A stretch of DNA of 64,000 bases from Escherichia coli (GTDB lineage Bacteria > Pseudomonadota > Gammaproteobacteria > Enterobacterales > Enterobacteriaceae), in assembly GCF_003991155.1 (NCBI RefSeq), contig NZ_CP031293.1, one strand, 5' to 3'. The position numbers were made by a program, and so were the translations under genes. The notes under the pieces are model-generated. The model saw nothing but the letters and a program-made list of their open reading frames with translations, was not told the origin of the DNA and did no database searches. Numbering within the stretch: the first letter of the stretch is position 1; the number at the start of each line of letters is the position of its first letter. This document shows, piece by piece, positions 49,244 through 57,223 of this stretch.

Positions 49244-52200
49244 ATGGCTACGAAGAAGAGAAGTGGAGAAGAAATAAATGACCGACAAATCTTATGCGGG
49301 ATGGGTATTAAACTACGCCGCTTAACTGCGGGTATCTGCCTGGTAACTCAACTTGTGTTCCCTATGACTGCGGCAGCACAAGGTGTAGTAAACGCCGCAA
49401 CCCAACAACCAGTTCCTGCACAAATCGCCATTGCAAATGCCAATACGGTGCCCTACACCCTTGGAGCGCTGGAATCGTCCCAAAGCGTTGCCGAACGTTT
49501 CGGTATTTCGTTGGCTGAGTTACGCAAACTCAACCAGTTTCGTACGTTTGCTCGAGGTTTTGATAATGTCCGCCAGGGTGATGAACTGGATGTCCCCGTA
49601 CAAGTTAATGAAAAAAATTTAACCCCGCCGGGTAATAGCAGTGACAACCGAGAGCAACAGATAGCCAGTACTTCACAGCAAATCGGGTCTCTGCTCGCCG
49701 AAGATATGAACAGCGAGCAAGCGGCCAATATGGCGCGTGGATGGGCCTCTTCTCAGGCATCTGGCGCAATGACAGACTGGTTAAGCCGCTTCGGTACCGC
49801 AAGAATCACGCTGGGCGTGGATGAAGATTTTAGCCTGAAGAATTCCCAGTTCGATTTTCTCCATTCGTGGTATGAAACGCCTGATAATCTCTTTTTCAGC
49901 CAGCATACCCTCCACCGTACTGACGAGCGTACGCAGATTAACAACGGCTTGGGTTGGCGTCATTTCACTCCCACATGGATGTCGGGCATCAACTTCTTTT
50001 TCGACCACGATCTTAGCCGTTACCACTCCCGCGCCGGCATTGGCGCGGAGTACTGGCGCGACTATCTAAAATTAAGCAGTAACGGCTATTTGCGACTGAC
50101 CAACTGGCGCAGCGCACCTGAACTGGACAACGATTATGAAGCACGCCCGGCCAATGGCTGGGATGTACGCGCAGAAGGCTGGCTACCCGCCTGGCCGCAC
50201 CTTGGCGGTAAACTGGTCTATGAACAGTATTATGGCGATGAAGTGGCCCTGTTCGATAAAGACGATCGGCAAAGTAATCCTCATGCCATAACCGCTGGAC
50301 TTAACTATACCCCCTTCCCGCTGATGACCTTCAGCGCGGAGCAACGCCAGGGTAAACAGGGCGAAAATGACACCCGTTTTGCCGTCGATTTTACCTGGCA
50401 ACCTGGCAGCGCAATGCAGAAACAGCTTGACCCGAATGAAATCGCTGCACGGCGTAGCCTTGCAGGCAGCCGTTATGATCTGGTGGATCGCAACAACAAC
50501 ATCGTTCTGGAATATCGCAAAAAAGAACTGGTTCGCCTGACCCTGACAGACCCCGTGACAGGGAAGTCAGGAGAAGTGAAATCATTGGTTTCGTCGCTAC
50601 AAACCAAATATGCCCTGAAAGGCTATAACGTCGAAGCCACCGCTCTGGAAGCTGCCGGTGGTAAAATGGTCACAACGGGTAAAGATATTCTGGTTACCCT
50701 GCCGCCGTACCGGTTCACCAGTACGCCAGAAACCGATAACACCTGGCCGATTGAAGTTACCGCTGAAGACGTCAAAGGCAATTTGTCGAATCGCGAACAA
50801 AGCATGGTGGTCGTTCAGGCACCTGCGCTAAGCCAGAAAGATTCCTCGGTATCGTTAAGTACCCAAACATTGAGCGCGGATTCCCATTCAACCGCCACAC
50901 TGACTTTTATTGCTCATGATGCAGCTGGTAATCCTGTTATCGGGCTGGTGCTCTCGACGCGTCACGAAGGTGTTCAGGACATCACCCTTTCTGACTGGAA
51001 AGATAATGGTGACGGAAGCTATACCCAAGTCCTGACCACAGGAGCGATGTCTGGCACGCTGACGCTGATGCCACAGCTGAACGGTGTAGATGCAGCTAAA
51101 GCCCCCGCCGTGGTGAATATCATTTCTGTTTCGTCATCCCGAACTCACTCGTCAATTAAGATTGATAAGGACCGTTATCTCTCCGGCAATCCTATCGAGG
51201 TGACGGTAGAACTGAGAGATGAAAATGACAAACCTGTTAAAGAGCAAAAACAGCAACTAAATACCGCAGTCAGCATCGACAACGTGAAACCTGGTGTCAC
51301 TACAGACTGGAAAGAAACCGCAGATGGCATCTATAAGGCGACCTATACCGCCTACACCAGAGGCAGTGGGCTTACTGCGAAGCTGTTAATGCAAAACTGG
51401 AATGAAGATTTGCATACCGCTGGATTTATCATCGACGCCAACCCGCAGTCAGCGAAAATTGCGACATTATCTGCCAGCAATAATGGTGTGCTCGCCAATG
51501 AGAATGCAGCAAACACCGTCTCGGTCAATGTCGCTGATGAGGGAAGCAACCCAATCAATGATCATACCGTCACGTTTGCGGTATTAAGCGGATCGGCAAC
51601 TTCCTTCAACAATCAAAACACCGTAAAAACGGATGTTAATGGTCTGGCGACTTTTGATCTGAAAAGTAGTAAGCAGGAAGACAACACGGTTGAAGTCACC
51701 CTTGAAAATGGCGTGAAACAAACGTTAATCGTCAGTTTTGTCGGTGACTCAAGTACCGCACAGGTTGATCTGCAGAAGTCGAAAAATGAAGTGGTCGCTG
51801 ACGGCAATGACAGCGCCACAATGACCGCGACAGTCCGGGATGCAAAAGGCAACCTGCTCAATGACGTCAAGGTCACCTTCAATGTTAATTCAGCAGCAGC
51901 GAAACTGAGCCAAACCGAAGTGAATAGCCACGACGGGATCGCCACAGCTACGCTGACCAGTTTGAAAAATGGTGATTATACGGTTACGGCCTCTGTGGGC
52001 TCTGGTTCTCAGGCTAATCAACAGGTGATTTTTATCGGTGATCAAAGTACTGCAGCCCTGACCCTCAGTGTGCCCCCAGGCGAGATCACCGTCACCGACA
52101 CAGCGCCTCAACAGCTGACGGCAACCTTGCAGGATAAAAATGGCAACCCACTAAAAGATAAAGAAATCACTTTCTCTGTGCCAAACGACGTCGCAAGTCG

Positions 52201-57223: not shown

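Follow-up and report, generated by a model that had tools for sequence, protein, structure and literature searches.

A long yeeJ allele of Escherichia coli with two old tandem 609-nt modules of Ig-like domains

We analyzed a stretch of 64,000 nucleotides (nt) of Escherichia coli DNA (contig NZ_CP031293.1; the whole stretch is called the window) that contains yeeJ, a gene encoding an adhesin with a long stalk of tandem immunoglobulin (Ig)-like domains. The sole long open reading frame between 47 and 60 kb lies on the plus strand at 49169-57223. Within it, the protein of 2659 amino acids (aa) that the first-pass annotation had read from a probable start was confirmed, from the ATG at 49244 to the stop at 57223. 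Two other in-frame starts exist, an ATG at 49217 (2668 aa, chosen by some annotations) and an ATG at 49301, which is directly followed by the signal-peptide-like MGIKLRRLTAGICLVTQLVFPMTAAAQG as read from the sequence. The chromosome of E. coli CREC-544 (NZ_CP024826.1), from which the 64-kb window differs by one base (99.998% identity), is annotated with exactly the 49244..57223 coding sequence. The window very probably carries a common, already published long allele of yeeJ with two old tandem modules of 609 nt. The gene and the protein it encodes comprise the following features:

49244..57223, plus strand: coding sequence of the long yeeJ allele, ATG to stop, 7980 base pairs (bp), 2659 aa, no internal stop
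48915..49243, plus strand: native upstream region of yeeJ; identity to K-12 is 96.5% over the aligned stretch 48915-49400
49430..49640, plus strand: LysM-like periplasmic segment, a weak Pfam LysM match (E=0.018; 15.4 bits, below the 20.9 cut-off)
49670..50497, plus strand: inverse-autotransporter beta-barrel (translocator), aa 143-418, Pfam IAT_beta PF11924 (E=6.3e-112)
50867..56632, plus strand: passenger stalk of 19 tandem Ig-like (Big_1 / Invasin_D3) domains, D1-D19, delimited with a self-built domain hidden Markov model (HMM)
56939..57133, plus strand: C-terminal lectin-like tip, a weak Intimin_C match (E=3.3e-4; 21.5 bits, below the 27 cut-off)

The protein has two parts expected of an inverse autotransporter, an N-terminal IAT barrel and a C-terminal passenger of tandem Big_1 domains. 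In searches of PDB sequences, the barrel matched the solved invasin/intimin barrels 4E1T (E=1.8e-78) and 4E1S (E=1.4e-66), a further match was FdeC, and the invasin passenger 1CWV aligned to aa 2160-2629 (E=7e-19). Pfam assigned 17 stretches of the stalk to Big_1 (E=1.7e-262), or 17-18 stretches when both Big_1 and Invasin_D3 are counted; the domain HMM, built from the window protein, resolved 19 Ig-like domains in the window YeeJ and 16 in that of K-12. The lectin-like tip is preceded by an invasin D4-like domain (a weak match to Pfam Invasin_D4). YeeJ shares the combination of beta-barrel, tandem Big_1 stalk and putative lectin-like tip with intimin, invasin, FdeC and Yersinia ruckeri YrIlm. 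From these matches, the protein is predicted to consist of a signal peptide, the LysM-like segment, a 12-stranded-type beta-barrel, the 19-Ig stalk and the tip. The barrel would be inserted in the outer membrane and the stalk exported together with the tip, whose reach would be set by the number of Ig domains. The LysM domain of K-12 YeeJ has been shown experimentally to bind peptidoglycan (Martinez-Gil 2017, PMC5595812).

Given the Pfam and PDB architecture, the K-12 synteny, the native 5' flank and the identity to the K-12 gene, this is the intact E. coli yeeJ orthologue itself, a type Ve inverse autotransporter; the earlier label “YeeJ-like adhesin” had the right assignment, and only its “like” is superfluous. 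Outside a single indel, both arms of the gene are 95.7-96.7% identical to K-12 yeeJ at the nucleotide level, and the downstream genes (a GT9 glycosyltransferase gene, shiA and amn) stand in the same order as in K-12. An NCBIfam scan of the protein returned no YeeJ model, the top match being the IatC N-terminal model below its cut-off, so the orthology call rests on synteny and identity. The YeeJ of K-12 MG1655 has 2358 aa, as had been stated beforehand, and the window allele is indeed the longer of the two (7980 vs 7077 bp).

Inside the stalk, a BLAST self-alignment paired 52276-52962 with 52885-53571 at 88.5% identity over 689 nt (E=0), a similarity well beyond what chance would give. The tandem direct repeat of about 600 bp described earlier is thus real, with a period of 609 nt according to a repeat search. 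Tandem Repeats Finder reported no repeat, its maximum period being 500 nt against the 609-nt period. Phased on the recurring peptide FVADK, each unit proved to consist of two Ig-like domains, in agreement with the initial description of repeated Ig-like domains:

52343..52951, plus strand: repeat unit 1, D6 + D7, 609 nt, 203 aa
52952..53560, plus strand: repeat unit 2, D8 + D9, 609 nt, 203 aa
52548..52920 in unit 1 and 53157-53529 in unit 2, plus strand: 373-nt core, the putative crossover zone

The similarity of the two units is a mosaic. Overall, they are 89.7% identical, with 63 differences in 609 nt, 24 aa changes and a synonymous divergence (dS) of 0.27. The first 205 nt (unit nt 0-204) are 80.5% identical (dS 0.59), the 373-nt core (unit nt 205-577) is 96.2% identical (dS 0.08), and the last 31 nt are 71% identical, with a dS that is not computable. 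The identity of about 95% given earlier for the blocks 52326-52926 and 52926-53546, which align at 90.3% with a 9-nt register shift, is reached only by the core. The longest identical in-register run between the units measures 68 nt (at 52733 and 53342), and the core contains no fixed unit-specific differences. Among domain pairs, D6/D8 share 81% and D7/D9 96% of their amino acids and all others at most 53%; the duplication of the two-domain module is the youngest domain duplication in YeeJ.

The repeat had first been taken for a recent duplication, a view that the divergence between its units (63 of 609 nt, dS 0.27 overall and 0.59 in the 5' third) and their closer counterparts in other strains contradict. 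We took units from the window, O157 strain 2009C-3554, SC418 and four draft genomes with longer alleles. Across strains, first units are 95.6-97% identical to each other and last units 93.9-97%, while first and last units are only 88-91% identical. The units of the window share 95.6-97% with the same-position units of distant alleles from other phylogroups, including O157 strain 2009C-3554, vs 89.7% with each other, and are therefore not the near-identical, mutually closest copies that a recent duplication leaves. Between alleles, dS is 0.07-0.13 for same-position units and 0.06-0.11 in the 3' 3.6 kb of the gene. Since the units are closer to their positional counterparts (dS 0.07-0.13) than to their neighbors (dS 0.27), the duplication is older than the split among the E. 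coli alleles sampled and is not recent.

Alleles with one, two and three units were found. SC418, with a yeeJ of 7374 bp, has exactly one unit fewer than the window, and O157:H16 Santai also has a single unit. Two units are present in the window and in O157 strain 2009C-3554. Three units occur in many protein-database clusters of 2863-2880 aa, in which the spacing is exactly 203 aa, and, as one uninterrupted match, in about 29 complete genomes. At the 27 sites with fixed differences between first and last units, one-unit alleles are of unit-1 type at the first 21 and of unit-2 type at the last 6, and the middle unit of every three-unit allele examined joins a unit-2 5' part to a unit-1 3' part. 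Judged from the sequences, such hybrid units look like the products expected of unequal crossover inside the 373-nt core. The flanks of SC418 differ from those of the window at a dS of 0.058 vs 0.59 for the 5' parts of the units, which argues that one-unit alleles are deletions from two-unit alleles, not relics from before the duplication; the 3' end of Santai was excluded from the dS estimates, as a length difference shifts its register. In three protein clusters (P0011, P0012 and P0050), adjacent units are identical at 200-202 of 203 aa at the protein level, which suggests that some events were more recent. In a further protein of 2768 aa found in nr only (P0086), two partial internal duplications (58 and 50 aa) in B-type domains stretch the FVADK spacing to 261 and 253 aa; this entry represents either a misassembly or out-of-register slippage.

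From these patterns we infer a mechanism in which unequal homologous recombination in the core adds or removes two Ig domains at a time, in frame because the module measures exactly 203 codons. The resulting natural alleles would carry one, two or three modules, that is, 17, 19 or 21 Ig domains. At synonymous sites, the core differs as little between paralogues as it does between alleles, and its identity of about 96% would most simply be kept up by occasional gene conversion or unequal exchange. The copy-number events would take place on evolutionary rather than culture timescales. The first-pass proposal of a recombination substrate that varies stalk length between strains is borne out, on those timescales, by the in-phase one-, two- and three-copy alleles; any effect of stalk length on function is hypothetical.

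The length gap to K-12 does not stem from the tandem duplication, as had first been supposed. K-12 yeeJ aligns to nt 1-3206 and 4090-7980 of the window gene, with the two arms overlapping by 23 nt in K-12, and lacks the following segment:

52427..53355, plus strand: segment bounding the sequence absent from K-12 MG1655, 903 nt net, equal to three domains or 1.5 units

The K-12 junction falls in the 23-nt shared stretch CTGACAGCAACAGTGAAAGATCC at 52427-52449, at the start of D6, which has a near-identical counterpart at 53333-53355, at the start of D9. This stretch encodes LTATVKDP, a peptide common to A-type and B-type domains. The sixth domain of K-12 is consequently chimeric, beginning as the A-type D6 and continuing as the B-type D9, and the protein has 16 Ig domains vs 19 in the window. 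Because such a chimera can arise by deletion and not by duplication, the sequences indicate that K-12 yeeJ is the derived form, a deletion derivative. The allele would have been produced by a further deletion between the 23-nt stretches shared by the starts of A-type and B-type domains.

We then estimated how common these alleles are, using BLAST against 5,426 complete E. coli genomes. At least 80% of the gene was present in 2,761 of them, and at least 80% of the 2.5-kb repeat region was covered in 1,199, a figure that includes one, two or three units, as BLAST coverage merges overlapping pieces and cannot separate unit numbers. An evenly spaced sample of 60 matches contained 23 two-unit, 1 one-unit, 34 K-12-type and 0 three-unit alleles, corresponding to rough genome shares of about 20% for two units, about 1% for one unit, about 30% for the K-12 type and less than 1% (about 0.5%) for three units. 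Within a lineage, the array is stable. Exactly two units were present in each of the 26 genomes that match the 2.5-kb region at 99.5% identity or better, and 22 of these genomes are 100% identical to the window there. The repeat had also been flagged as a hazard for short-read assembly; with a longest identical run of 68 nt this hazard is small, and draft assemblies carry three-unit alleles inside contigs of 50-170 kb.

Several other explanations of the window allele were considered. If a K-12-like YeeJ had been enlarged by a recent, lineage-specific duplication of about 600 bp, this would account for D6-D7 and D8-D9 being by far the most similar domain pairs (81% and 96% vs at most 53%) and for the 96.2% identity of the core. 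We consider such an enlargement extremely unlikely: 63 of 609 nt differ, dS reaches 0.59 in the 5' third, distant alleles contain positional orthologues of both units at 95.6-97% identity, the two-unit allele occurs in roughly 20% of complete genomes, and the gap to K-12 is one of 903 nt with a chimeric domain, not of 609 nt. That the assembly wrongly doubled a single block, a worry voiced at the outset, is practically impossible. Only the general risk that repeats pose to assemblers speaks for it, and an artefactual copy would be identical, whereas these copies differ at 63 positions and share no run longer than 68 nt; moreover, 22 complete genomes, which differ in strain, host and country of origin, match the 2.5-kb region at 100% identity, and the 64-kb window is 99.998% identical to CREC-544. 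The in-frame one-, two- and three-unit alleles, together with the few proteins whose adjacent units agree at 200-202 of 203 aa and point to some recent events, could also mark a fast contingency locus, at which unit number switches often within a lineage as in phase-variable repeat proteins. This is very unlikely in view of the 26 of 26 close relatives that keep two units and the low shares of one-unit (about 1%) and three-unit (about 0.5%) alleles among complete genomes; the homology between units is also broken every 68 nt or less, and such interruptions depress exchange through the behavior of RecA and mismatch repair.

The reverse order of events would make the one-unit form or the K-12 form the ancestor, from which the two-unit allele arose by insertion or duplication; the 2017 paper puts the difference in these terms (“presence of a 906 bp fragment”). 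One-unit alleles do hold the outer halves of the array (unit-1 5', unit-2 3'), as a gene from before the duplication would, and no outgroup match polarises the series. This order is nevertheless unlikely: the sixth K-12 domain, with its A-type N-terminus and B-type remainder, is a chimera that duplication could not produce, and the SC418 flanks (dS 0.058, against 0.59 for the unit halves) place its split long after the duplication. Our preferred reading, a common published long allele with an old two-unit array, has points against it as well. An outgroup was sought over species-representative genomes with a degenerate back-translated pattern of KDPSNHPVAGITVNF, which matches both units in the window, and gave 0 matches, so that the direction of events is not polarised by another species and was deduced without an outgroup. 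Stronger purifying selection, instead of exchange, could account for the near-identical cores, though their synonymous sites are conserved as well (dS 0.08). The allele frequencies are rough, being record spans in a 60-row sample of matches rather than a full census, and the equation of the window allele with the published variant was drawn from matching length and content, not from the UMN026 sequence itself.

The published description is that of Martinez-Gil et al. (2017, Sci Rep 7:11326, PMC5595812), who reported two length variants of yeeJ, the long UMN026 type having 906 additional bp and three extra Big domains. This variant and the window allele agree in locus, architecture, excess over MG1655 (903 or 906 bp) and the three added Big domains, whose sequence is repeated elsewhere in the gene. 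The sum of 7077 and 906 bp is 7983 bp, the length of the commonest long allele (2660 aa); the window allele, of 7980 bp, is one codon short of this, the missing codon lying 5' of the repeat. The window allele is thus, by inference, the published long variant. That description, which otherwise shows no substantive difference from ours, does not include the 609-nt module, the alleles with one or three modules or the chimera in K-12, and the literature we searched gave no account of yeeJ length classes beyond the two variants. The feature is therefore already known, and the extra length classes and the K-12 chimera are small additions. Tandem Ig repeats have been discussed as a source of length variation in inverse autotransporters (PMC6714894). 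The YrIlm of Y. ruckeri has near-identical Ig repeats, in comparison with which YeeJ, with a two-domain module about 90% identical between copies, is far less repetitive.

The phenotype reported for YeeJ is biofilm formation, and the sole published test of the two variants found no difference between them in biofilm assays (PMC5595812). The stalk forms a series of four steps (16, 17, 19 and 21 Ig domains). A bolder view of this series, which we put forward tentatively and think rather doubtful, is that it is repeatedly generated by unequal exchange, with the core homogenized by conversion and K-12 as a deletion derivative, and that its lengths are perhaps tuned to the thickness of O-antigen or capsule or to the host. 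Any such adaptive meaning is speculation; if true, tuning to a surface layer or host could explain why no phenotypic difference was seen in a K-12 background.

For the window itself, the finding is of little importance, as it concerns a common, published allele of a known adhesin. It does imply that the YeeJ employed for surface display, that of K-12, is a truncated derivative containing a chimeric domain, and that surveys of adhesins based on presence/absence or single-nucleotide polymorphisms, such as genome-wide association studies, will miss the polymorphism of one, two or three modules. In NCBI records, the K-12-length allele is named “inverse autotransporter adhesin YeeJ”, and most two- and three-unit alleles are named “Ig-like domain-containing protein”; the generic names hide orthology, so that name-based surveys undercount yeeJ. 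In E. coli ECOD1 (NZ_CM129827.1, 2394-3607), a yeeJ 100% identical to that of the window carries an IS3-family insertion that splits its coding sequence at about 860 nt. A premature stop in yeeJ has been reported for an ST410 subclone (PMC10786849). Given these two routes, yeeJ has been inactivated in several ways across strains.

The surroundings of yeeJ differ from those in K-12, where tRNA-Asn abuts the gene. In the window, an island of about 10.8 kb (38009-48930) adjoins an intact tRNA-Asn (38009-38084) and separates it from yeeJ. It contains a tyrosine integrase gene (about 38251-39513), a RelE/ParE toxin-antitoxin pair, Rhs core fragments, an IS3 element (about 46067-47244) and a gene for a small PAAR protein (48454-48717). 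The island ends in a repeat of about 15 nt of the tRNA 3' end (48915-48930), directly 5' of the native yeeJ promoter region; this tRNA-Asn remnant, with which the native upstream region begins, resembles a scar left at the right-hand end by insertion of the island. Immediately upstream of the tRNA-Asn lie cbl and nac (35715-38084), in place of the K-12 neighbors mtfA and tRNA-Ser, which suggests a rearrangement among the several asn-tRNA loci of the region. On the other side of yeeJ, the GT9 gene (57484-58536, minus strand; yeeL in K-12) is annotated as intact, unlike the K-12 MG1655 copy, a pseudogene with an internal stop.

A complete type VI secretion system (T6SS) cluster occupies 1-31700, according to the CREC-544 annotation of this 99.998% identical region. 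Its minus-strand genes are tssM (cut at the window start), tssA, vasI, tssH, icmH, tssK, tssJ, tagH, tssG, tssF, tssE, tssC and tssB, followed by hcp (about 15628-16146), vgrG (about 16360-18348), a DUF2169 gene, a 4.4-kb PAAR-like/Rhs toxin gene (about 19543-23961) and more Rhs fragments with immunity-like genes. Two direct copies of an ISAs1-family (ISEc1-like) element, at 29389-30655 and 32176-33441, are 97% identical over 1.27 kb, and one is annotated as frameshifted in the reference strain. Inverted Rhs repeats of 3.1 kb (20389-23475 vs 42200-45286) are 81% identical, and further Rhs core repeats of 1.2 kb between 22.3 and 27.9 kb are 78-90% identical; through these Rhs repeats, the T6SS effector locus and the tRNA-Asn island could undergo inversion or exchange cassettes.

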